This document shows positions 1-16,915 of a DNA stretch of 64,000 nucleotides, in pieces. Position 1 is the stretch's first letter. The number at the start of each line of letters is the position of its first letter. The notes under the pieces were generated by a model. It made no database searches and was not told the origin of the DNA. It worked only from the letters and a program-made list of their open reading frames with translations. This stretch comes from Oscillospiraceae bacterium (GTDB lineage Bacteria > Bacillota > Clostridia > Oscillospirales > CAG-272). The position numbers were made by a program, and so were the translations under genes. The stretch covers positions 4,164-68,163 of the forward strand of contig SVRE01000003.1 in NCBI GenBank assembly GCA_015065005.1. Reading direction: 5' to 3'.

Positions 1-1
1 A

Positions 2-1051
2 AAGGGTATTAGATTTGCATACCAGACCTGCTTGGCAGCCTTTGCATTTGCAATTCTGTCATTCTTCTTTGGTTCAACCTTTGTTGTTGGTATTGATAAC
101 AAGATGCTTCAGTATATTCTTGGCTGTGGCGGTGGAGTTGTTGGTAGCTGGGCTATCGGCTCATTCTTTATGATGCCTTACCATATTACAGCGCAAATCT
201 CCAGCGTTGAGGAAAAGCTGACACACAAAAATCACTCAGCTATGTACTTTGCGGCAAACGCAGTATGTACATCTATCGTAAGCGCAATTTCAGGCTCATT
301 GATTTATGAGCTTATAAAGAACCTGTTCATCTCAAAGGAAACAGGCAAGATTATCTGGGCAACAAGCGAAACCGTTAGAATTAACGGTGTTGAATTTATC
401 ACTAAGCCAATTGAATCAGCAGCAATTGAGCTTGGAATGATAGATTACGGCAAAATTATGCTGTTGACAGAGGAAGCAAGGGAAGCTTTAATCAAAGAAC
501 TGCCTGTGTACAATTTCGGCTTGATTTTAGTTCCGTTTATAGTTGCGGCTTGTTGCATTCTCGGTCTTTTCCTGGCGTTTAAAATGCCAAGGGATTTCAC
601 TGCGGACCTTGTTGCAAAGGAGCTTAAGACGCTTGACCCAACAGTTGATTTGGAGGAATTTAAAAAGGATGAAAGCTACAATGTTAAGGAAGAAAAGAGC
701 GAAATTATATTCGTTCAAATCGGTCTTTGGGTGCTTTCAGGCGGTATATTTGGCTTTATTTGGTCAGCGTACCTCTTTAAGTCAATAAAGGAGCATATAA
801 AAGGCTTTAAAAACGTTCTTTGGTGGGCATTGTGCGTATTTGTTCCATTTGTATCAGCCTTCTTAATGGCAAAAGTGTATACAGAGCTTAAGGTAATGGG
901 AGAACAAAAGGGCGTTAAAATTACAGGTAACAAGTGGCTATATATTGTCCTTGGAATTCTATTCCCAATTCTTCCTTTAAATGTGGTTTTGCTTGCTCTA
1001 ATGCAAAAGAATATTAATAAGTTATTTGAATCAGAGGAAAAGGTAGCATAA
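2..1051 (+). CDS. MFS/GPH-type membrane transporter, 5'-truncated by the window edge, with an extra C-terminal multi-TM module
   Basis: The frame is open from the window edge, with no stop upstream of nt 32. The translation is rich in TM segments. The stop abuts the next start (TAAATG). The C-terminal about 120 aa resemble small DUF4234-like membrane modules. Confidence 0.55.
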   Translation, partial: KGIRFAYQTCLAAFAFAILSFFFGSTFVVGIDNKMLQYILGCGGGVVGSWAIGSFFMMPYHITAQISSVEEKLTHKNHSAMYFAANAVCTSIVSAISGSLIYELIKNLFISKETGKIIWATSETVRINGVEFITKPIESAAIELGMIDYGKIMLLTEEAREALIKELPVYNFGLILVPFIVAACCILGLFLAFKMPRDFTADLVAKELKTLDPTVDLEEFKKDESYNVKEEKSEIIFVQIGLWVLSGGIFGFIWSAYLFKSIKEHIKGFKNVLWWALCVFVPFVSAFLMAKVYTELKVMGEQKGVKITGNKWLYIVLGILFPILPLNVVLLALMQKNINKLFESEEKVA

Positions 1052-1702
1052 ATGTACTGGTTTACTCATTGGTTTATTAAAATAACAGGCTTCATTCCGT
1101 GGCTTTTCGGTTATCGCGCCAAGATTTATTATGAAGACAAAAGCATACAGGGTAGAAGGATTAAGGGCAAGGCAATAGTTATGCCCAACCACCACTCTGT
1201 AATGGATGTTGCCTTACATATGTTTGTGTTTTGGAGTCGTACTTTGCGATGCCTGGCGGCGGAACTGATGTACAAAAAGAATATTTTTATGACCCTTATG
1301 CTAAAGCTTCTGGGCTATATCAAAGTTGATAGAGACTCTCACGATTTTTCCTTCCTCGGCAAGGCTGAAAAGGTGCTGAACAAAAAAGGAGTAATAGAAA
1401 TTTATCCCGAATCTCGCCTGGCAAGGCCCGGGGAGGAAAAGCCTCTTGAATTTAAGCCAAGCGTTGTGTACCTTGCCCTGTCAACAGGCGCGCCTATAAT
1501 CCCCGTTTACCACACAGGCGCACTTTTTAAAAAGGAGAGGGCGCTTGTAATAATAGGCAAGCCTATTGATGTTAAGGAATGGTATGATGACACTCTTGGC
1601 GAAAGAGAAAATATTGAAATAATCTGTAAGAAATTAAGGGAAAGGGTTATTGAATTAGGTAATGAGCTTGAAAGACAAAGAAAAGAAGAAAAAGCAAGGT
1701 AA
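1052..1702 (+). CDS. PlsC-family lysophospholipid/glycerolipid acyltransferase
   Basis: HX4D motif (NHHSVMD) and an EIYPESR block (FPEGT-like). The size is about 216 aa, and the gene is translationally coupled to its neighbours. Confidence 0.75.
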   Translation: MYWFTHWFIKITGFIPWLFGYRAKIYYEDKSIQGRRIKGKAIVMPNHHSVMDVALHMFVFWSRTLRCLAAELMYKKNIFMTLMLKLLGYIKVDRDSHDFSFLGKAEKVLNKKGVIEIYPESRLARPGEEKPLEFKPSVVYLALSTGAPIIPVYHTGALFKKERALVIIGKPIDVKEWYDDTLGERENIEIICKKLRERVIELGNELERQRKEEKAR

Positions 1703-3842
1703 TTTCCTGTATGACTTTGTTAAGGTAACAGGCGCAATACCTGCAATGCTTTGGCTTCGTCCCAAAATTTTGTATGTGGGTAAAAAGCAAAGGATAAAGG
1801 GCGGCGTTTTAATTGCAGCCAACCACGTTACATTTACTGACCCTGTTGCATTGCTTTGCGCTCTTTGGTACAGACGTCTTCACAGTATAGCAACAAAGGA
1901 CTTGTATTCCTCAAAGCTAAAGAAATTCTTTTTCAACAAAATGCACTGTATAATGGTGGATAAGGAAAACTTTAATATGGGTACATTCCATCAAGTGTGC
2001 GAAAGGCTACAGCAGGACAAGGCGGTTGTTGTTTTTCCCGAGGGCACAGTTAACAAAACAGGAAATGCATTTTTGACCTTTAAGTCAGGTGCGGTTTTAA
2101 TGGCATATAAGGCAAAAAAGCCGATTTTGCCAATATATCTGCATGAGCCGAAGAAATGGTACGAAAGGCGTATCATTGTTGTCGGTGAGCCTATTGAGAT
2201 TAATAAAAGTGGGGCATTGTTGCCATCAATGGATGAAATAAACCAAATAAATCAGCTGTTACAGGAAAAAGAAGAGGAGCTAAAGGCTCACTGTGACAGC
2301 TACGTGGCTAAAAAAGCCAAAAGGAGCAATAAAATGGGCATTTTTGAAAAATATACAGATAAAGAAACATATGCAAAAATAGTTGACTTTGAGTCAGTTA
2401 GCCAAATGTGGGCGCACTCTGTCAGTGAGTACGGCGACAAAACCGCAATTTGCGACAATGGTGAGAGCTACACGTTTTCCGACCTTGAGGAGCAGGTTGC
2501 AAGGATGCGCTCCTACCTTCTTGAAAACGGAGTAAAGAAGGGGGATAATGTAGGCATATATATTCCAAACTGCAAGGACTTTGTAAAGACCTATTTGGCA
2601 GTTACAACAATAGGCGCAGTTGCAGTTCTTTTGCCACCTCAGCTTGATGAAATGACCGTTTTTGGCTGTTCAATGAAATTTGCCTTAAGCGCTATGGTAT
2701 ATTCACAGGCTCTTGAGAGTAAGCTGACCTTCTTAAAGGAAAAAAGACCTGATTTTAAGCTTTTTCCCGATAGTGTTGAAGGTGAAAACAGCGTACCTTG
2801 CCAAAATGTAGCAGGCAGTGATCCTTGTACAGTTTTGTTTACAGGCGGTACAACAGGCAAGAGCAAGGGCGCTCTTCTTTCCAATCGGGCAATTATGCGC
2901 GGTACCAAGAACGGCTGCTACGGTATAAAGAGTATATTTAATGAGCGTTATTTGCTCGTTTTACCCCTTACCCACGTTTTCGGTCTTGTGCGTAATATGC
3001 TCACAAGCCTTTATACAGGCAGTGCCTTGTTTATTTGCCGTAACAATAAGGATATGTTTAAGGATATTGCAGTGTTTAAGCCAACAATTATGGTTCTCGT
3101 TCCCGCCCTTGCTGAAATGGCAATTAACTTGTCAAAGCAATTTGGCAGAAATATGATGGGTCCGGACCTTAAAACTATAATTTGCGGTGCTGCAACCGTT
3201 TCACCGTACCTTGTACAGGAGTATGACAAAATCGGAGTTGAGCTTTTGCCGGGCTACGGTATGACAGAAAGTGCTAACCTTGTAAGCGGCAACCCTGAGG
3301 CACGTAAAAAGCCTGCATCCGTTGGCTTGATTTACGAGGGCATGGAATATAAGGTTGTTGACGGTGAGCTTTGGCTTAAGGGCGTTAATATGATGGAGGG
3401 CTACATTGGTGAGCCGGAGGAAAACGCAAGCTCATATGAGGACGGCTGGTTTAAAACAGGTGACCTTGTTCGTTTTGATGAAGAGGGATTTTTGTACATA
3501 GTTGGCAGGAAGAAGGAGATTATAGTTCTTTCAAACGGTGAAAATATTTTCCCTGCCGAAATCGAAACCAAGTTTAATGAAATTGATGTTGTACAGGACT
3601 CCTTGGTTTATGAAAATGAGGAGCTAAACGGCTTGATTTTGGAGGTTTACCCACGTGGGGTCGTTCTTGCCACCGTTGAGTGCGAGGACAAGGAAAAATA
3701 CCTTCGTGACAGAATTAACGAGGTAAATATGGCGCTTCCATCAATTCAAAGGGTAAACCAGATTATCATAAGAGATAAGGACTTTGTTCGTTCTCCAAGT
3801 ATGAAGATAGTAAGAGGTCAGAATAAAAATGAGCAGAAATGA
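1662..3842 (+). CDS. Fusion of a PlsC-type acyltransferase with an AMP-dependent acyl-CoA/acyl-ACP synthetase (Aas-like)
   Basis: The N-terminal part has HX4D (NHVTFTD) and VFPEGT. The C-terminal part has the adenylation motifs TGGTTGKSKGA, GYGMTES, TGDLV and GRKKEIIV. The start is uncertain because it overlaps the upstream gene by 41 nt. Confidence 0.8.
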   Translation: MSLKDKEKKKKQGNFLYDFVKVTGAIPAMLWLRPKILYVGKKQRIKGGVLIAANHVTFTDPVALLCALWYRRLHSIATKDLYSSKLKKFFFNKMHCIMVDKENFNMGTFHQVCERLQQDKAVVVFPEGTVNKTGNAFLTFKSGAVLMAYKAKKPILPIYLHEPKKWYERRIIVVGEPIEINKSGALLPSMDEINQINQLLQEKEEELKAHCDSYVAKKAKRSNKMGIFEKYTDKETYAKIVDFESVSQMWAHSVSEYGDKTAICDNGESYTFSDLEEQVARMRSYLLENGVKKGDNVGIYIPNCKDFVKTYLAVTTIGAVAVLLPPQLDEMTVFGCSMKFALSAMVYSQALESKLTFLKEKRPDFKLFPDSVEGENSVPCQNVAGSDPCTVLFTGGTTGKSKGALLSNRAIMRGTKNGCYGIKSIFNERYLLVLPLTHVFGLVRNMLTSLYTGSALFICRNNKDMFKDIAVFKPTIMVLVPALAEMAINLSKQFGRNMMGPDLKTIICGAATVSPYLVQEYDKIGVELLPGYGMTESANLVSGNPEARKKPASVGLIYEGMEYKVVDGELWLKGVNMMEGYIGEPEENASSYEDGWFKTGDLVRFDEEGFLYIVGRKKEIIVLSNGENIFPAEIETKFNEIDVVQDSLVYENEELNGLILEVYPRGVVLATVECEDKEKYLRDRINEVNMALPSIQRVNQIIIRDKDFVRSPSMKIVRGQNKNEQK

Positions 3843-4080
3843 GATAGCAGAAAAACTAAAGGATATAATGGCGCTTGCCCTGGGAAACAAGGTTGACCTT
3901 GGTAAATGTACTGAGGAGTCCAATTTGACTACTGATTTAGGGCTTAATTCCGTTGGAATATTATACGTGGTTATTGCCATTGAGGAGTTTTTTGGAATAA
4001 GCTTTGGTGATGTCAGCTTCGGTGATTTCCAATGTGTTGGTGACGTAATCAATTATATCGAGGAGCAGATTAAACAATGA
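3829..4080 (+). CDS. Acyl carrier protein
   Basis: 83 aa acidic protein with a DLGLNSV phosphopantetheine-attachment-like motif. Both ends overlap the neighbouring genes. Confidence 0.7.
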   Translation: MSRNEIAEKLKDIMALALGNKVDLGKCTEESNLTTDLGLNSVGILYVVIAIEEFFGISFGDVSFGDFQCVGDVINYIEEQIKQ

Positions 4081-5081
4081 AATGGGAGCTGAATGAGCCC
4101 AAAAAAGGGGATATGATTCGCGTTCGCGCAGGCAGTATATATCACTACGGTGTATATGTCAGCGATAGCGAGGTTATTCAGTTTGGCTTAGCCCCAAATG
4201 CGCGCTTAAATGTTAAGGACTGTGATATAGAGGTTTTGTCAACCGACATAGATACCTTTTTAAACGGTGAGTTTTTAGAGGTGGCAGTTTTGGACAGGAA
4301 AGAAACTAAAATGCGTATTCCGCCCGAAAAAACGGTGGAAGCAGCGAGGGCGCGCATAGGCGAAAAGGGCTATAACATTTTACGCAATAACTGTGAGCAT
4401 TTTGCAAACGAGTGCGTAATGGGTCTAAAGAAAAGCTCTCAAGCGGATGACGTGCGTGAATTTTTCCGCAACCTTCCCATAGTTGACGTTTATCTTGGCG
4501 TAATTCCCGAAAAGGTAAAAATTTCCTCCGTTTACCCAAAGGAGAGGGCAAAGGAAATTAAGGCTTGCTCAAATGATAGGGTAAAAAGAGAGAAGTATTG
4601 TGCATGGAAGCTTTTGGAATATGCCCTTAACCGTACCTTTGGCGCTAAAATTAAGGAGCTTGAATTTATAAAGGGCGAAAACGGTAGGTGGTCAACCCCC
4701 ACACATCATTTTTCAATTTCCCACACAGACGGTATGGTGGCTGTTTCCGTTTCCCGTGCCATGGTTGGCGTTGATATTGAAAAGGAAAGCGATAAGCTTT
4801 TGTCCGTGGTCCCAAGGCTGCTTACACAGGATGAGCTTTTGGAATATGAAAAATTAGAGCAAGAAAGTAAGCTTTCCTACTTAGGCACTAAATGGACACA
4901 AAAGGAAAGCATATTCAAATCTTTAGATGAGAAAGGATTCATTCCACATAAAATTGAGGTAAAGGAATACGAAACCTACACGCGGGAAATAGAAACAGAG
5001 GGAAATAAATACTATTTGTCCGTTGCTACCCAAACCCCCGAAAGAGTGCGCCTTTATACTAATGTGGAATATTTAAAGTGA
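4077..5081 (+). CDS. Fusion of an LRAT/NlpC-P60-like domain with an Sfp-type 4'-phosphopantetheinyl transferase
   Basis: The N-terminal part has YHYGVYV and the NCEHFANEC motif of the LRAT/HRASLS family. The C-terminal part has ISHTDGMVAV, VGVDIE and WTQKESIFKS (PPTase motifs). Confidence 0.7.
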   Translation: MKWELNEPKKGDMIRVRAGSIYHYGVYVSDSEVIQFGLAPNARLNVKDCDIEVLSTDIDTFLNGEFLEVAVLDRKETKMRIPPEKTVEAARARIGEKGYNILRNNCEHFANECVMGLKKSSQADDVREFFRNLPIVDVYLGVIPEKVKISSVYPKERAKEIKACSNDRVKREKYCAWKLLEYALNRTFGAKIKELEFIKGENGRWSTPTHHFSISHTDGMVAVSVSRAMVGVDIEKESDKLLSVVPRLLTQDELLEYEKLEQESKLSYLGTKWTQKESIFKSLDEKGFIPHKIEVKEYETYTREIETEGNKYYLSVATQTPERVRLYTNVEYLK

Positions 5082-5088
5082 GAGAATT

Positions 5089-5799
5089 ATGAAAATAGGA
5101 CTGTTTTCCGACCCGCACTACTGTCAGTGCGATAATATAGGCGGTAATCGCCATCCCATGCTCTCTTATGATAAAATTAAGACATCAATGGAGGAGTTTA
5201 ATAAGAGTGGGGTTGACCTATGCATATGTATGGGAGATTTAACCGACCATGCCAAGGGGGACACAAGGGCGGATGCAAAAAGCAATCTGAAAAAAATAAT
5301 GGCGCTTATTAATTCTTATAAAATTCCCTTTTATCTTGTAGTCGGCAATCACGACTATTTAATGCTAAACTCAGATGACTTAAAAGAGGAAAATATCGAC
5401 ACTCCCCCGTACAAAATTGAAACTGAGGAGTATAATTTTATCGCCTTAGACGGTAACTACCGTTCTGATATGGAGCGCTTTGATAAGGCGGGTGTTGTCT
5501 GGGATGACTCAAACCTGCCACCCTTTCAGCTTGATTATTTAAGAAAAAGCCTTGCAAGCTCACAAAAGCCCTGTATCGTACTTGTTCACGAGAATTTAGA
5601 CCCTACAGTGCAGGAGCAGCATATAATAAAAAATGCAACAGAGGTGCGTAAAATAATCAAGGAAAGCGGAAAGGTAAAAATGGTAATCCAAGGCCATTTC
5701 CACGAGGGTAGCTATCAAATAATAGACGGCATACCCTACCTGACCCTTAAAGCTATGTGCCAGGGTGAGGAAAACCCGTATGTTATTTTAGAAATATAA
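5089..5799 (+). CDS. Calcineurin-like metallophosphoesterase
   Basis: Motifs DPH, GDLTDH, GNHD and GHFH. It is the last gene of the plus-strand operon. Confidence 0.75.
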   Translation: MKIGLFSDPHYCQCDNIGGNRHPMLSYDKIKTSMEEFNKSGVDLCICMGDLTDHAKGDTRADAKSNLKKIMALINSYKIPFYLVVGNHDYLMLNSDDLKEENIDTPPYKIETEEYNFIALDGNYRSDMERFDKAGVVWDDSNLPPFQLDYLRKSLASSQKPCIVLVHENLDPTVQEQHIIKNATEVRKIIKESGKVKMVIQGHFHEGSYQIIDGIPYLTLKAMCQGEENPYVILEI

Positions 5800-5801
5800 A
5801 A

Positions 5802-5826
5802 AGAGCCGATTAATCGGCTCTTTTTA
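5802..5826. terminator. Bidirectional intrinsic terminator
   Basis: AGAGCCGAT-TA-ATCGGCTCT stem flanked by an A-run and a T-run, placed between convergent genes. Confidence 0.7.
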
Positions 5827-7696
5827 ATTGCTCCTTATTGTATTGAAGCATATAAAGGCTATGATATTTACCCTTCTTTTCAAGCAGCTCAAAATGGGAG
5901 CCCTGCTCGATAATTTCACCGTGTGAAAGCACAATAATGTTGTCCGCGTGCTGAATAGTGGATAGCCTGTGGGCAACCATTAGCATAGTGCCGATTGACA
6001 TTATCTTTTCAAGAGAATTTTGTATTAAAATCTCTGTTTCCGTGTCAATGTTTGATGTTGCCTCATCAAGTATCATAACAGAGGGCTTGTGAATTATGGT
6101 TCTTGCAAAGGACAAAAGTTGTCTCTGTCCTGAGGAGAAGTTGTTACCGCGCTCTCTTACCTCAGTGTCAAGCCCACTTGGTAAACGGTTAATGAAATGG
6201 TTAGCATTTACATACTCGCATACCCGATTTATTTCCTCATCAGTGTACTCGTTGTGCAAGGCAATATTACTCCTGATGGTTCCTGCAAAAAGGAACACAT
6301 CCTGTAGCATCTGCCCAAAATGGCGTCTTAATGAGGAAATCTTAATCTTCTTTATATCAATTCCGTCAATTAAAATCTGTCCCTTTTGTATGTCATAGTT
6401 CCTGCAAATCAAGGAAAGTATGGTTGTCTTGCCTGAGCCTGTTGACCCAACAAAGGCAACGGTTTCCTTTGCCTTAACCTTAAAGGAAACACCCTTTAAA
6501 ACCCATTCATCGGGGACATAGCTGAACCAAACATCACGGAATTCAATTTCCCCTTCAACCTTTTCAAGCTCTATTGCATCAGGCTCGTCAACAACTGTTG
6601 GCTCAATGTCAAAAATAGTAAATATTTTCTCAGCAGATGCAAATGCGTGCTGTAGCATATTAAACTGCTCAGCAAGGGCCTGTATAGGGTTAAAGAATTT
6701 GTTCAGATACATATAAAATGTAACAATAGTGCCGGCGCTGATGCCCTGCCCCAAAAAGCTGATGTTGTCAATATATCCGCGTCCGCCTAAGTAGAACAGG
6801 CACATAACGGAAGCAACGTAGAGCATATACACAAGCGGTCTGAATATACCAAAGGTAAACATTTGCTCACGCTTGCATTTTCCCAAATGGTTATTTTTTT
6901 GGTCAAATTCTTCCTTTTTTCTGTCCTCACGGTTGAAAATCTGGATTATTTTCATTCCCGACAAATTTTCGGAAAGGTAAGTGTTTATGGCAGTTGTTGC
7001 ATTGTTTACCTGCCTGTATGCCTTACGGGAGAATTTTCTGAAAATAATGGTGAACAGAATGACAAACGGCACAAAGCAAAGCACCATAAGCGTCAGCATA
7101 TAGTTAAGGCACAGCATAGCACCCAAAACGCCGAAAACAATAAAGATATTCTTAACCAAGTTTACAAGAATACCCGTAAACATATGGGATATGGAGTTTG
7201 TGTCGTTAACCACACGTGTAACCAGCTTGCCAACAGGGTTTTTGTGTAGCTGGTCGTGGGATAAGGACTCAATATGCTCAAACAAATCCTCGCGGATTTT
7301 AGAAACAATCCTTTGTCCTGTTTTTTGAAGCACAATAGCCTGTACATAGGATGAAATCAAGGAAACTATGAGAATACCGGCATAAATTATAACCGTTGTA
7401 TAAAGCTCGGAAAGCTCAAAATCTCCCTTAATCATCTCGGTTATATTACCGATAATAATAGGTGAAATAATGTCATAGGCAATGGAGAAAATAATAACAA
7501 AAAGCACTAAAATAAAGCTCTTTGCGTGTGGCTTAGCATAAGCAAGCAACCGCTTAATTATTTCTCCGTCCTTCATATTGCGGTCAAAGCCAATGGCGGT
7601 TTTTTTGTCCTTCATCAAGCAAAAGGCGACAACAAAAATAACAGAAATAGCGCCGATAATAGCGCCGATTATTAAAAGAGGATATAATTCGTACAT
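5810..7696 (-). CDS. ABC exporter, fused permease/ATPase (heterodimer partner 2)
   Basis: Six-TM N-terminal half, Walker A GSTGSGKT, signature SSGQRQ, Walker B ILDEATS. Confidence 0.85.
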   Translation of the reverse strand: MYELYPLLIIGAIIGAISVIFVVAFCLMKDKKTAIGFDRNMKDGEIIKRLLAYAKPHAKSFILVLFVIIFSIAYDIISPIIIGNITEMIKGDFELSELYTTVIIYAGILIVSLISSYVQAIVLQKTGQRIVSKIREDLFEHIESLSHDQLHKNPVGKLVTRVVNDTNSISHMFTGILVNLVKNIFIVFGVLGAMLCLNYMLTLMVLCFVPFVILFTIIFRKFSRKAYRQVNNATTAINTYLSENLSGMKIIQIFNREDRKKEEFDQKNNHLGKCKREQMFTFGIFRPLVYMLYVASVMCLFYLGGRGYIDNISFLGQGISAGTIVTFYMYLNKFFNPIQALAEQFNMLQHAFASAEKIFTIFDIEPTVVDEPDAIELEKVEGEIEFRDVWFSYVPDEWVLKGVSFKVKAKETVAFVGSTGSGKTTILSLICRNYDIQKGQILIDGIDIKKIKISSLRRHFGQMLQDVFLFAGTIRSNIALHNEYTDEEINRVCEYVNANHFINRLPSGLDTEVRERGNNFSSGQRQLLSFARTIIHKPSVMILDEATSNIDTETEILIQNSLEKIMSIGTMLMVAHRLSTIQHADNIIVLSHGEIIEQGSHFELLEKKGKYHSLYMLQYNKEQLKRAD

Positions 7697-9468
7697 TACA
7701 TAGCCTCCTTTTCTTCATCAAGGCGCTGCAGCTCCACCATATTGCGGTAGTCCTTGCAATTTTCATAAAGCTCATCGTGTGTGCCTGTTGCCACAATCTC
7801 ACCGTCATCAATGTAAACAATCTTGTCCATTTTCTCAATGGTAGAAACACGGTGTGCAATTAAAATTGTGGTTTTGTCTTTTCGTACAGTCTTTAAATTT
7901 TCAATGATAATTTTCTCTGTTTTGGTGTCAACCGCCGACACAGAGTCGTCTAAAATCAAAACAGGTGCGTTTTTCATAAGGGCACGTGCAATGGAAATTC
8001 TTTGCTTTTGTCCCCCCGAAACCGTAACTCCTCGCTCGCCCAGAACCGTTTGATAGCCCTGTGAAAAGCCCTCAATGCTTTTGTGTATGTCCGCCAATCT
8101 GGCAGCCTTCTGTACATCAAGCTCACTTTCATTGGTAGCAAAGGCAATGTTATTTTCAATTGTGTCGCTGAACAAAAAGTTGTCCTGTGGCACATAAGCG
8201 CAAAACTCACGCAAATTCTTAATAGGTACTTGATTTACATCCACACCGTCAACAAAAAGCGTGCCGTTTTCCACATTATAGGTGCGTAAAATCAAATCAA
8301 CAAGGGTTGTTTTGCCGGCACCCGTCTTGCCTATAATGCCAACATTTTCCCCTGCATTGATTTTCAAGCAAATATCCTTTAATGCATCAAATGAAGCATC
8401 AGGATACCTGAAGGTCAGATTTTTAAATTCTATCTCTCCGCGAACAGCTTTGATCTCTTGCACATCCTCTTTGTCGCAAACGTCAATTTTTGCATCAAGA
8501 AGCTCACTTATACGGTTAAGGGAAGCCTTACCCCTCGATTGCATTTCAATAAGCTGGGAAATAGCCATAATCGGCCATACAATAGTATTAAAATAACCGA
8601 TAAACTCAACAAACTCACCGGCATTAAAGCGTCCGTTGTAAACAAGGTATCCGCCGTAGCCAATAATTACACAAATAACCGACTCAACAAAAAGAGTAAC
8701 AAAAATATGCAAAAGGGTAGATGCCTTTGTGTGGTCAACGTTGGCATCCTCGTTTTTCTTGCTTAGCTTTTTAAATGCCCAAAGCTCACGCGCTTCTTTA
8801 ACAAATGCCTTGATTACCGCAATGCCCGAAAAGCTTTCCTGTGCGTAATCGGAAAGGGCGGAAAAAGCCTCCTGTCTTAACGTCCATTTCTTCATCATAT
8901 ACTTACGCACAATAGTTGCAACAACAATAAGCATTGCCATAGGTATCAGGGATAAAAGAGTTAAAACATAGTCCATTTTAAACATCTTGTAAAGTGCAAG
9001 ACATCCAAGGAGCAAGGCGTCAAAAAAGGATAAAACGCCCGAGCCAAAGCATTCCTCAACCGTACGCAAATCATTGGTAAATAAGGACATCAAATTACCA
9101 ACCTTGTTTACCTGGTAGTAGCTTTGGGATAAGTCCTTACAATGGTCGAACATACGGCCTCTTAAATCCGTTTCCACCTTAATCGCCGAGCCAAAGAAGC
9201 AAATTCTCCAAGCAAATCTGCCAACAACAAGCGCCACAATAACAAAAATCATGGGCAAGCACACCTTGTCAAGCAGAAATTCAATGTTGAATTCGTGTGT
9301 AACACCGTCAACAACCACATACCCATCATTAATACCGTTAATGACAGACCTGTAAATTTCGGGAATTAAGAGCTGAAAATAGTCAACAACAATAAGCGCC
9401 ACTAAGCCTAAAATAAGCATAGGCGCATACCGTAAATAATATTTGTTAATATGCTTTCCAAATAACAT
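7696..9468 (-). CDS. ABC exporter, fused permease/ATPase (heterodimer partner 1)
   Basis: Walker A GKTGAGKT, signature SGGQKQR, Walker B ILDDSVS. There is a 1-nt overlap with the downstream partner. Confidence 0.85.
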   Translation of the reverse strand: MLFGKHINKYYLRYAPMLILGLVALIVVDYFQLLIPEIYRSVINGINDGYVVVDGVTHEFNIEFLLDKVCLPMIFVIVALVVGRFAWRICFFGSAIKVETDLRGRMFDHCKDLSQSYYQVNKVGNLMSLFTNDLRTVEECFGSGVLSFFDALLLGCLALYKMFKMDYVLTLLSLIPMAMLIVVATIVRKYMMKKWTLRQEAFSALSDYAQESFSGIAVIKAFVKEARELWAFKKLSKKNEDANVDHTKASTLLHIFVTLFVESVICVIIGYGGYLVYNGRFNAGEFVEFIGYFNTIVWPIMAISQLIEMQSRGKASLNRISELLDAKIDVCDKEDVQEIKAVRGEIEFKNLTFRYPDASFDALKDICLKINAGENVGIIGKTGAGKTTLVDLILRTYNVENGTLFVDGVDVNQVPIKNLREFCAYVPQDNFLFSDTIENNIAFATNESELDVQKAARLADIHKSIEGFSQGYQTVLGERGVTVSGGQKQRISIARALMKNAPVLILDDSVSAVDTKTEKIIIENLKTVRKDKTTILIAHRVSTIEKMDKIVYIDDGEIVATGTHDELYENCKDYRNMVELQRLDEEKEAM

Positions 9469-14232: not shown

Positions 14233-14360
14233 ATATTAATAGAATTATTTTTTAATTAAGTAGGTAGACTTTTTATGTAAAAATTGGTACAATTTACACA
14301 GCTCGGGTAAATAGTGTAAGAAAACTTGCTTGCCCGAAAAACAAAGTGAGGTATTTAATT

Positions 14361-15248
14361 ATGTCAGATTACATTTTGGCTACTTGCTCTACAGCAGATA
14401 TAAGTGCAGAGCATCTTAAAGCAAGAAATATTGATTATGTTAAATTTTCCTTCTACCTTGACGGAAAGGAATGTGCAGATGACTTGGGACAGACCATCAG
14501 CTTTAGTGATTTTTATCAAATGATGCGTGACGGCGTTGATACGAAAACCTCTCAACCAAATGCACAGCAGTTTAAGGACTTTATCGTTCCGTATTTCAAG
14601 GAAGGCAAGGACGTTATTATTCTTAATTTGTCTTCGGGTCTTTCAGGCGCACAGACCTCTGCTAATATTGCAATGGCAGAGCTTAAGGAAGAATATCCTG
14701 ACAGAAAGGCTTATGTTATTGACTCTCTTGGTGCATCCTCGGGTATGGGCCTTTTGGTTGACAAAATGGCAGACCTTCGTGACGCGGGTATGTCTATTGA
14801 TGACTTGTATAAGTGGACTGAGGAAAATAAGCTGAAGGTACACCATTGGTTCTTCTCAACGGACTTAACCTTTTACGTTAAGGGCGGCAGGGTTTCCAAG
14901 GCTGCAGGCTGGTTTGGTACTGTTTTGAAAATTTGTCCTCTTCTTAATATGGATTTACTGGGTCATTTAGTACCAAGGGAAAAGATCAGAGGCAAAGCAA
15001 ACGTAATTAAACAAATAGTTAAGAAGATGGAACAATTTGCTGACTGCGGTCTTGACTATGACGGAAAATGCTATATGTGTCATTCTGATTGCTATGAGGA
15101 TGCAAGGGCGGTTGCTGATATAATTGAGGCTAAATTTCCCAAGCTTAACGGTAAGGTGCTTATAAATAGCATCGGGACAACAATCGGCTCTCATACAGGA
15201 CCTGGCACAGTTGCTGTGTTCTTCTTTGGTAAAGAAAGAAATGATTAA
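14361..15248 (+). CDS. DegV-family fatty-acid-binding protein
   Basis: DegV-like translation (ILATCSTADIS... GPGTVAVFF). The start is moved to ATG 14361, 6 nt downstream of the GTGAGG RBS. Confidence 0.85.
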   Translation: MSDYILATCSTADISAEHLKARNIDYVKFSFYLDGKECADDLGQTISFSDFYQMMRDGVDTKTSQPNAQQFKDFIVPYFKEGKDVIILNLSSGLSGAQTSANIAMAELKEEYPDRKAYVIDSLGASSGMGLLVDKMADLRDAGMSIDDLYKWTEENKLKVHHWFFSTDLTFYVKGGRVSKAAGWFGTVLKICPLLNMDLLGHLVPREKIRGKANVIKQIVKKMEQFADCGLDYDGKCYMCHSDCYEDARAVADIIEAKFPKLNGKVLINSIGTTIGSHTGPGTVAVFFFGKERND

Positions 15249-16915
15249 TGGAGAATGTGATGTCAGAAAATATCAAACACGATAAAATTAACGGTGAGGA
15301 TTACAAAAATCTGATTATAAGTGCAGCTCAAAGCTTGGAGGACAGTAAAGAGGAAATCAACGATTTAAACGTATTTCCCGTGCCGGACGGTGATACAGGC
15401 TCCAACATGTCAATGACAGTAGGAAATGCTGCTAAGGAACTGTTAAAAAACGATAATTTAACTCTTGACCAAACAGCTGAAAAGACTGCAAAGGCTATGC
15501 TGCACGGTGCAAGGGGTAACTCAGGCGTAATTGTCAGCTTGCTTTTCCGCGGAATTGCAAAGGGACTTAAAAATTCCTTTGAGTGTGACGGAATTGCATG
15601 GGCTGAGGCGCTTAAGCAGGGGGTTGAAGCCGCGTATGGCGCAGTTGACCGTCCGGCAGAGGGTACAATTTTAACAGTTGCAAGAAAGTGTGCAGAAGCA
15701 GCGGAGCAGGCAGCAAAGCGTCAAAATGATTTTGAGTACGTTTTGGGTGTAGCTATTGAAGCTGCTGAAAAGGCGCTTGATGAAACGATAAATCAAAACC
15801 CCGTGCTTGAAAAGGCAGGCGTTGTTGACGCGGGCGGTATGGGCTGGCTTGTGGTTATGAAGGCTATGCACCAAACCTTGAAAACAGGCAAGGTTGCAAC
15901 CTATGAACCAAAGGTGAGCAATGAAGAGCCAAGAGAAAGGGCAGATTTCTCCGCCTTTGAAACAGAGGAAATTACCTTTGGCTTCTGTACTGAGTTTATA
16001 GTCAGAAAGCACGATGGTGACAGCGATACCCAAGGCTTTAAAAAATACCTTAACGGTATGGGAGATAGCCTTGTTATGCTTGATGACGGTGAAATCATTA
16101 AGGTTCACGTTCACACAAACGAACCGCATGCGGTTTTAGGTGAAGCACTTAAATACGGTGTTTATGAAACCGTTAAGGTTGAAAATATGCGTACTCAGCA
16201 CACGAATAAGCTGGTTGAGGAGGCTATGTCTGCACCCGGTGCAAAAAGTGAAAAGGAATATGGCTTTGTAAGTGTTGCAAGCGGTAGCGGAATAGAAGAA
16301 ATGTTTAAGGAGCTTGGCGTTGATATAGTTGTGGCAGGTGGCCAAACTATGAACCCGTCCTGCGAGGATATTTATAATGCTGTTTGTCAAATCAACGCAA
16401 AAAACATATTTATCTTGCCAAACAACAAGAACATAATAATGACCTCTAACCAGGTGTCTGAAATGTCAGACAAAAACATAAAGGTTATTCCTACAAGGTC
16501 AGTGCCACAGGGCTTTTCTGCATTGCTGGGCTTTGATTTAGAGGCTGATGTGGATGCGAATTTTGAAAGTATGTCCGAAATGGCAAAGACGGTAGATACA
16601 ATGCAGGTTACTTATGCTGCAAGAAACTCCAATTTTGACGGCCTTGAAATCAAGGAGGGCGATTATCTCTCCCTCTACAATGACAAGCTTTTGAAAAACG
16701 ACAGTAGCCTTGATAATATCATTAATGCTTTGGCAGATAAAATCAATGAAAGCGAAAAGAGCTTTGTAAGTGTATATTACGGTGAGGATGTTTCCAAAGA
16801 GGAAGCGGAAGATACTCTTTTCAAGCTTGAAAAATCAATTGATAATCCAAGCGTAGAGCTTGCTTTATACCAAGGCAATCAGCCTGTATATTACTATATC
16901 ATTTCAGCGGAATAA
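15248..16915 (+). CDS. yloV: DAK2-domain fusion protein YloV
   Basis: N-terminal DhaL/Dak2 motif (DGDTGSNM) plus a YloV C-terminal domain. TAATG overlap with degV. Confidence 0.85.
   Translation: MENVMSENIKHDKINGEDYKNLIISAAQSLEDSKEEINDLNVFPVPDGDTGSNMSMTVGNAAKELLKNDNLTLDQTAEKTAKAMLHGARGNSGVIVSLLFRGIAKGLKNSFECDGIAWAEALKQGVEAAYGAVDRPAEGTILTVARKCAEAAEQAAKRQNDFEYVLGVAIEAAEKALDETINQNPVLEKAGVVDAGGMGWLVVMKAMHQTLKTGKVATYEPKVSNEEPRERADFSAFETEEITFGFCTEFIVRKHDGDSDTQGFKKYLNGMGDSLVMLDDGEIIKVHVHTNEPHAVLGEALKYGVYETVKVENMRTQHTNKLVEEAMSAPGAKSEKEYGFVSVASGSGIEEMFKELGVDIVVAGGQTMNPSCEDIYNAVCQINAKNIFILPNNKNIIMTSNQVSEMSDKNIKVIPTRSVPQGFSALLGFDLEADVDANFESMSEMAKTVDTMQVTYAARNSNFDGLEIKEGDYLSLYNDKLLKNDSSLDNIINALADKINESEKSFVSVYYGEDVSKEEAEDTLFKLEKSIDNPSVELALYQGNQPVYYYIISAE

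Follow-up and report, generated by a model that had tools for sequence, protein, structure and literature searches.

Introduction

In Gram-negative bacteria, the transporter LplT and the bifunctional enzyme Aas re-acylate lysophospholipids (PMC11416262). Firmicutes bring exogenous fatty acids into phospholipid through the FakAB/PlsX/PlsY/PlsC route, and Enterococcus has an auxiliary acyl carrier protein (ACP), AcpB (PMC6509188, PMC12594616). A further described arrangement is AcpR/ACS, a pair formed by a specialised ACP and an acyl-ACP synthetase for bacterial sphingolipids (PMC9386255). Here we analyse a gene cluster at the start of a 64,000-nucleotide (nt) stretch of contig SVRE01000003.1 from an Oscillospiraceae bacterium (the window, that is, the whole stretch of DNA analysed). 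An original prediction, made from the DNA alone, had read this cluster as an Aas/LplT-like lipid-remodelling operon of six translationally coupled genes, insulated from type II fatty acid synthesis (FAS II) and equipped with a dedicated ACP, a dedicated phosphopantetheinyl transferase (PPTase) and a phosphoesterase. We arrive at a related but altered view and consider it probable, at a level of about 0.55, that the cluster is an accessory operon for the salvage and remodelling of exogenous lipid in a host in which no FAS II genes were found. No published description of this cluster was found in our literature searches, and to our knowledge enzymes of the PLAAT/LRAT type, one of which is predicted here, have been studied almost only in animals.

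Results

A seven-gene operon with two predicted ligase-carrier-acyltransferase modules

The six open reading frames (ORFs) at the start of the window all lie on the + strand, the first being open at its 5' end (2..1051; Table 1), and they follow one another closely: in order, their junctions are abutting, a 41-nt overlap, a 14-nt overlap, a 4-nt overlap (ATGA) and a 7-nt gap. Although the predicted positions and tight junctions of these genes stood, the predicted extent of the operon did not, because gene 1 is cut by the edge of the window and a seventh co-directional gene upstream had gone unnoticed. This gene, A-T (AMP-binding::PP-binding), is preceded by a promoter-like site and ends 10 nt upstream of the transporter gene, outside the window. 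The operon is seven genes long and begins with A-T, ∼2.9 kb upstream of the window. The domain calls of the original prediction were reproduced by Pfam for both PlsC-type acyltransferases and for AMP-binding, PP-binding, LRAT, ACPS and Metallophos; the window part of gene 1 had no Pfam match, and its call as an MFS transporter was confirmed on the full-length gene only, as MFS_2 (658 residues, 1e-31). On inspection, catalytic motifs are present in the operon proteins, the attachment Ser of both carriers included. In sequence terms, the operon encodes two ligases of the adenylate-forming kind, and each has a carrier and a PlsC-type acyltransferase as its partners: module 1 consists of A-T and the stand-alone PlsC, and module 2 of the Aas-like PlsC::ligase fusion and the stand-alone ACP.

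The PlsC::ligase fusion has the architecture of Aas, with an N-terminal PlsC-type domain containing HX4D (Acyltransferase, residues 42-160) and a C-terminal adenylate-forming domain (AMP-binding, residues 252-581) in one polypeptide, and it carries the motifs HVTFTD (HX4D), FPEGT and TGGTTGKSKG. In BLASTP it aligned with E. coli Aas collinearly in two blocks, the ligase at 32% identity (E 4e-29) and the acyltransferase at 30% (E 5e-9), and the Aas-like logic of the original prediction is borne out to this extent. The protein lies outside the Aas equivalogs, with 158 bits against a cut-off of 1221 for NF006386 and 149 against 1349 for NF005291, and among the NCBIfam models those for general fatty-acid-CoA ligases outscore those for Aas; the ligase matches the long-chain fatty-acid ligase model at 3.5e-68. 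A search of PDB sequences with the fusion gave no match at E<=1e-40. Further, the ligase contains DGWFKTGD...GRKKE, which we take to be a good match to the fatty-acyl-CoA-synthetase signature, and there is good reason to suppose that module 2 is specific for fatty acids. The stand-alone PlsC, with HHSVMD as its HX4D motif, is a conserved paralogue apart from the PlsC domain of the next gene (43-55% versus 25-31% identity).

The cluster ACP has a PP-binding domain with the conserved attachment Ser of an acyl carrier protein, located in DLGLNSV (Ser41, invariant in 12 orthologues), and it matched NCBIfam ACP models at 4e-12, under their equivalog cut-offs. That the cluster has an ACP of its own was upheld, as the protein is only 37% identical to the housekeeping-type ACP and differs from it in helix II, which is hydrophobic, not acidic, as would suit partners used by this carrier alone. 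Rhizobia have AcpXL and NodF, which are further specialised ACPs feeding dedicated acyltransferases.

The sixth gene of the operon encodes a fusion of an LRAT domain to an Sfp-type PPTase. The catalytic pair of the LRAT domain is His23 and Cys106, the latter in NCEHF, and the PPTase domain has the motifs GVDIE and WTQKES..K; H23, C106 and H108 are invariant in 26 sequences, and D233, E235, W273, K276, E277 and K281 of the PPTase domain are invariant too. PLAAT3 (1.9e-7) and Sfp were the matches among PDB sequences. In an AlphaFold2 model with a predicted local distance difference test score (pLDDT) of 90, the N-terminal part matched PLAAT2/3/4 (4dpz, 4fa0, 7zom and 7zot; TM-score 0.77-0.79, normalised to target) and the C-terminal part matched Sfp (4mrt; E 9e-13, TM-score 0.70). 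The first domain thus has the papain-like fold of LRAT/PLAAT enzymes together with their His and their NCEHF catalytic Cys, and the second combines the pseudo-dimeric Sfp fold with Mg-binding Asp/Glu residues and W/FxxKE..K, as in Sfp-type PPTases. The C-terminal hydrophobic membrane anchor of the animal enzymes is absent, and the LRAT domain runs into a helix and then into the PPTase; stand-alone LRAT forms comprise 140-143 residues only. A complex predicted for LRAT residues 1-135 and the cluster ACP scored 0.19 against a mark of 0.32 and was not used as evidence. The fusion family comprises 727 protein clusters (90%-identity clusters from gut metagenomes) at E<=1e-10; the best 120 of the 727 all have both domains, and names among these are generic, e.g. 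"lecithin retinol acyltransferase family protein" from Candidatus Coproplasma.

The core genes are kept together across families and in a second phylum

To follow the cluster in other genomes, one genome per species was scanned with LRAT::PPTase as the query, and the operon proteins were mapped on the resulting 80 loci by tblastn and ORF clustering (L-numbers denote loci and G-numbers genomes in this comparison). The order A-T, (MFS_2), PlsC, PlsC, ligase, ACP, LRAT is kept in ∼25 species-level genomes, which belong to uncultured Eubacteriales, Christensenellaceae, Oscillospiraceae/Ruminococcaceae and Lachnospiraceae (animal gut, rumen) and to two Treponema. Co-conservation, one of the expectations attached to the original prediction, is therefore strong across related loci, the phosphoesterase excepted, and we take the conserved core of the predicted pathway to be A-T, the MFS_2 transporter, PlsC, PlsC plus acyl-AMP ligase, ACP and LRAT(::PPTase). 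In most loci, PlsC and the ligase are separate adjacent genes that are fused only near the lineage of the window, which provides a Rosetta-stone link between them. A fusion of LRAT to the PPTase occurs in ∼20 loci; L024, L026, L027, L029 and L030 have a stand-alone LRAT in the same place of the cluster. Two loci, L011 and L017, are without A-T and the first PlsC and keep PlsC, ligase, ACP and LRAT::PPTase; this joint absence indicates that A-T and the first PlsC are one module, and that PlsC, ligase and ACP are the other. The cluster is sporadic, being present in 5 of the 201 genomes of the order sample. In L088 (1820-2949), an extra PlsC-family acyltransferase (274 residues) and an 83-residue protein without a family match lie just upstream of A-T, and these may be a third acyltransferase and carrier pair.

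Orthologues of the transporter with 50-61% identity occupy the same position in nine loci. A search of PDB sequences with the transporter gave no match, and the ESM Atlas returned only "putative MFS transporter" clusters. Residues ∼420-658 make up a C-terminal extension of ∼240 residues with extra hydrophobic segments and no family match. This extension is common to the orthologues located between A-T and PlsC (620-658 residues), whereas the MFS_2 paralogues that follow FakB in other genomes (∼460 residues) are without it.

The PPTase had been predicted to be dedicated to the pathway. In this genome (83% complete), the PPTase domain is the sole ACPS-family match; a sole ACPS-family PPTase was also found in G060, G072 and G082, and in at least 9 of the 16 genomes that carry the fusion. 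A tree built from PPTase domains placed that of the window among fused forms, with the stand-alone PPTase of L021 as its sister (support 94/89). Together, the sole occurrence and the tree position argue that the PPTase is not dedicated but housekeeping-like, and it behaves as the housekeeping PPTase of the lineage that sits in, and is fused to, the cluster.

At the syntenic site of L021 (9980-11309) and in G201, a stand-alone PPTase gene (203 residues), the phosphoesterase gene and an ATP-binding cassette (ABC) transporter pair are found, with an MFS_1 gene before them. The Aas-like cluster is nowhere in this sister genome (L021/G201), which suggests that the cluster was gained or lost beside an essential PPTase gene.

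The metallophosphoesterase did not keep the place in the pathway originally given to it. All of its metal motifs are present, its NCBIfam match is weak and CpdA/SpdA-like (3e-12), and no match was found among PDB sequences. It follows the cluster only in L087, where the LRAT::PPTase relative is ∼84% identical, and occurs also in L021, the sister genome without the cluster; it is absent from L088 (a 70% relative with the six-gene core kept) and from more than 20 other loci, and among related loci it is not co-conserved in the manner of a pathway member. Rather than a core step, it would be a lineage-specific passenger of the PPTase gene. Assignments as a GpdQ-like glycerophosphodiesterase or as an ACP phosphodiesterase were considered and dropped, because support was at the superfamily level only and the gene is not co-conserved.

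The cluster adjoins lipid genes in a lineage with few FAS II genes

Lipid genes come directly after the cluster in at least 10 loci, in the order Hydrolase_4-type alpha/beta-hydrolase, DegV/FakB, a shorter second MFS_2, FakA, two hydrolases and a small zinc-ribbon membrane protein. The exogenous-lipid context that had been proposed is thus reinforced by FakA, FakB and lipase-like hydrolases adjoining the cluster in at least 10 other genomes. In Treponema locus L011, an esterase, an unknown protein and an MMPL transporter flank the cluster, with FakA, FakB and a hydrolase nearby, and in the window the FakB/FakA pair lies 8.5 kb downstream of the operon. No head-group, condensing or reducing enzymes travel with the cluster in the related loci.

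In the genome itself (83% complete), searches for FabF/B, FabZ/A and FabH found nothing, and rnc comes immediately after plsX, the fab and acpP genes that usually lie there being missing; the insulation from FAS II originally proposed for the cluster is therefore moot. The genome has PlsX, two PlsY, two DegV, FakA and seven PlsC-family matches, and its ACPs besides that of the cluster are a lone AcpP-type ACP and one further ACP. Within the order sample, 102 of 201 genomes had a detected β-ketoacyl-ACP synthase (KAS), as did only 1 of 10 from the window's own family, most members of which likewise miss FabZ and FabH; this pattern points to widespread fatty-acid auxotrophy in this gut/rumen lineage. 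For the related loci, KAS was found in only 4 of the 23 underlying genomes, two of which have a stand-alone PPTase only, but because related genomes are not independent samples the scarcity of KAS among them is a tendency and not a test.

Weighing salvage of exogenous lipid against its alternatives

Several lines of evidence argue for lipid salvage and remodelling: active-site residues are intact and invariant across orthologues; the gene order is kept in ∼25 genomes and PlsC is fused to the ligase; FakA, FakB and lipase-like hydrolases adjoin the cluster, and head-group enzymes do not; PlsC::ligase is collinear with E. coli Aas and carries a good match to the fatty-acyl-CoA-synthetase signature; A-T and the first PlsC are missing together from L011 and L017; FabF/B, FabZ and FabH were not found, while FakAB, PlsX and PlsY are present; and KAS is scarcer behind the related loci than in the order sample. 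By this evidence, the cluster would be a variant of the Aas kind with an added LRAT::PPTase fusion. In the proposed mechanism, the PPTase would turn all four carriers of the cell into their holo form, and each ligase would spend ATP to charge the carrier that belongs to it with a scavenged fatty acid. From there, the two PlsC enzymes would pass the acyl groups to lyso-glycerolipids or a glycerophosphodiester, acceptors that would either enter through the MFS_2 transporter or arise in situ. Acting through an acyl-Cys as a phospholipase A or a transacylase, the LRAT domain would make or exchange lysolipid and acyl groups in a Lands-cycle-like manner, and the operon as a whole would run beside the standard FakAB, PlsX, PlsY, PlsC route of the same genome.

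A number of observations weigh against this reading. The transporter had been predicted to be LplT-like, but it is an MFS_2 protein in which homology to LplT was not detected (BLASTP against E. coli LplT, E 0.77), and MFS_2 is tied to lysolipids here by context alone. The A-T ligase is as close to MenE and aryl-CoA ligases as to FadD, its PDB matches being weak and to MenE and aryl ligases, and its substrate need therefore not be a fatty acid. L018 and L027 have A-T, two PlsC, ACP and LRAT but no second ligase, and a simple scheme of one ligase per carrier does not explain them. With regard to auxotrophy, the two Treponema carriers and G010 have KAS, so that the link is not a rule, and most FAS II-lacking genomes of the order are without the cluster, which is therefore dispensable for auxotrophy. 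FakAB and PlsX are present already, leaving the need for ATP-dependent loading of acyl carriers unexplained. Finally, the public sequencing runs that contain this DNA are animal gut and faeces metagenomes, with no RNA run among those listed.

Foremost among the alternatives, albeit unlikely, is that the operon does not serve bulk-membrane salvage but the biosynthesis of a specialised acylated product. Here, A-T would be a ligase like those of non-ribosomal peptide synthetases and would activate an aryl, hydroxy, amino or unusual fatty acid; starting from a glycerolipid, sterol, bile acid or other alcohol, PlsC and LRAT would assemble a distinct lipid or ester; and MFS_2 would import the acceptor or export the product. 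The divided affinities of A-T described above would fit this, as would the LGGSS motif of its carrier domain, which resembles that of peptidyl carrier proteins, and specialised pathways typically have carriers of their own in which helix II is not acidic. Alcohols are esterified by members of the LRAT family, the cluster occurs patchily and has been transferred horizontally (5 of 201 genomes of the order as well as Treponema), and pairs of a specialised ACP and an acyl-ACP synthetase are known for sphingolipids (PMC9386255). However, a specialised product would sit poorly with what is conserved around the cluster: no head-group, condensation, reductase, aminotransferase or glycosyltransferase genes accompany it, its conserved neighbours are FakA, FakB and lipase-like hydrolases, and the second ligase clearly belongs with the fatty-acid ligases and resembles that of Aas. 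A Dlt-like D-alanylation was also considered for A-T and was dropped, because no DltA-model match was among the matches listed.

A second alternative, compatible with either salvage or a specialised product, concerns the LRAT domain only, and we regard it as improbable. The domain would act not as a phospholipase but on the phosphopantetheine thioester of a carrier, either as a type-II-thioesterase-like editor of mis-primed or stalled acyl-carriers or as an acyl transferase between phospholipid and holo-ACP. Its Cys-His pair is invariant, and papain-like Cys enzymes readily take thioester donors. Further, the fusion to a carrier-docking enzyme is widespread, given the 727 clusters and the presence of both domains in the best 120 of them, but it is not obligatory, as the five loci with LRAT and no PPTase reveal. 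Similarly, L018 and L027 keep the ACP without the ligase, so that something else must load it, but PlsX could do so instead.

In what we consider a long shot, the PLAAT-like domain is a transacylase from phospholipid to holo-ACP. Acyl chains of phospholipids from the host or the diet would be taken up as an acyl-Cys intermediate and passed directly to the carrier docked by the PPTase domain, at its phosphopantetheine thiol. If true, gut bacteria without FAS II could harvest acyl chains at no cost of ATP, and the mechanism would explain the variants that keep the ACP without its ligase.

That the genes are chance neighbours, housekeeping genes packed together, is hardly credible: the sole PPTase of the genome, with its housekeeping role, and the phosphoesterase that is not co-conserved would suit such an origin, but the order of six core genes is kept across families and in a second phylum, with fusions between neighbours.

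Features and flanks of the locus

The coordinates of the operon genes and of the neighbouring features are collected in Table 1. The hairpin behind the last operon gene resembles a terminator that works in both directions, for the operon on one side and for convergent ABC exporter genes on the other. The latter are two MsbA/SmdAB-like half-transporter genes (window 5810-9468, - strand; 628 and 590 residues). The pair is 82-88% identical in the sister genome without the cluster, and because it is conserved there the exporters are probably unrelated to the cluster.

On the other side, 230 nt upstream of the operon, a TMEM164-family membrane protein of 236 residues is encoded at L002:365-1075 with a promoter-like site of its own (Pfam 3.9e-10). 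The gene is not at this position in any related locus, the 84% relative included. Human TMEM164 is a phospholipid-remodelling acyltransferase (bioRxiv 10.1101/2022.07.06.498872; PMC12830759).

Table 1. Features of the operon and its surroundings. Positions are those of the window, the first base of which is contig base 4164; L002 coordinates are contig bases.
Feature	Position	Strand	Basis or remark
A-T (AMP-binding::PP-binding), 640 aa	L002:1305-3227	same direction as operon	first operon gene
MFS_2 transporter, 3' 1050 nt in window	1..1051; full L002:3238-5214, 658 aa	+	Pfam on full-length gene
Stand-alone PlsC-family acyltransferase, 216 aa	1052..1702	+	Pfam Acyltransferase 4e-18
PlsC-acyltransferase::acyl-AMP ligase fusion, 726 aa	1662..3842	+	Pfam Acyltransferase 2e-22 + AMP-binding 3e-61
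Cluster-specific ACP, 83 aa	3829..4080	+	Pfam PP-binding 1e-6
LRAT (residues 1-135)::Sfp-type PPTase (residues 136-334)	4077..5081	+	Pfam LRAT 1.6e-20, ACPS 3e-7
Calcineurin-like metallophosphoesterase, 236 aa	5089..5799	+	Pfam Metallophos 2e-17; last operon gene
Palindromic GC-rich hairpin, A and T runs at sides	5797..5826		bidirectional-terminator-like
FakB (DegV)	14346-15248	+	context gene
FakA	15248-16915	+	context gene

Discussion

About half of the sampled order is without a detected KAS and probably builds its membranes from scavenged lipid. If the cluster does serve the salvage of exogenous lipid, it would be a Gram-positive counterpart of LplT/Aas, carrier-insulated and in two modules. 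It would further present a bacterial PLAAT/LRAT-type domain fused to the sole PPTase, an essential enzyme, within a large fusion family that has no characterised member. The cluster could thus be a testable entry into the exchange of lysolipids and fatty acids between host or diet and uncultured Clostridia.

Compared with mammalian PLAAT/HRASLS and LRAT (4dot, 4fa0, 7zom, 4q95), the LRAT domain has the same fold and the same pair of His and Cys (NCEHF). In contrast to these enzymes, it is bacterial, predicted to be cytoplasmic, without the C-terminal anchor and fused to an Sfp-type PPTase, and it has Gln or Ala in place of the second catalytic His.

Like AcpR/ACS, the cluster would encode a carrier of its own alongside the ligase that loads it and a downstream transferase dedicated to it. 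It differs in that its downstream enzymes are PlsC-type glycerolipid acyltransferases, with no head-group or condensing enzyme.

With the FakAB route and AcpB, the cluster would share the entry of exogenous fatty acids into phospholipid in Firmicutes and a second ACP for exogenous chains, and in many genomes the Fak genes are physically linked to it. Activation in the cluster would proceed by ATP-dependent adenylating ligases onto carriers, not by acyl-phosphate, and its acyltransferases are paralogues of its own, the standard route being present besides the cluster.

The closest comparison is with LplT/Aas of E. coli. The cluster has its own ACP, whereas Aas borrows AcpP; it adds a second ligase-carrier-PlsC module, a PLAAT-like domain and a PPTase; its PlsC-ligase fusion is split in most relatives; its transporter is MFS_2, whereas LplT is of the MFS_1 type with ∼400 residues; and it resides in a Clostridium of the Gram-positive type, for which FAS II genes were not detected. 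Nevertheless, in both systems a PlsC-type domain lies N-terminal to an acyl-ACP synthetase, the polypeptides being of almost the same length (726 versus 719 residues), the gene for this acyltransferase-ligase shares its operon with an MFS transporter, and the acyl intermediate is, or in the cluster would be, bound to a carrier.

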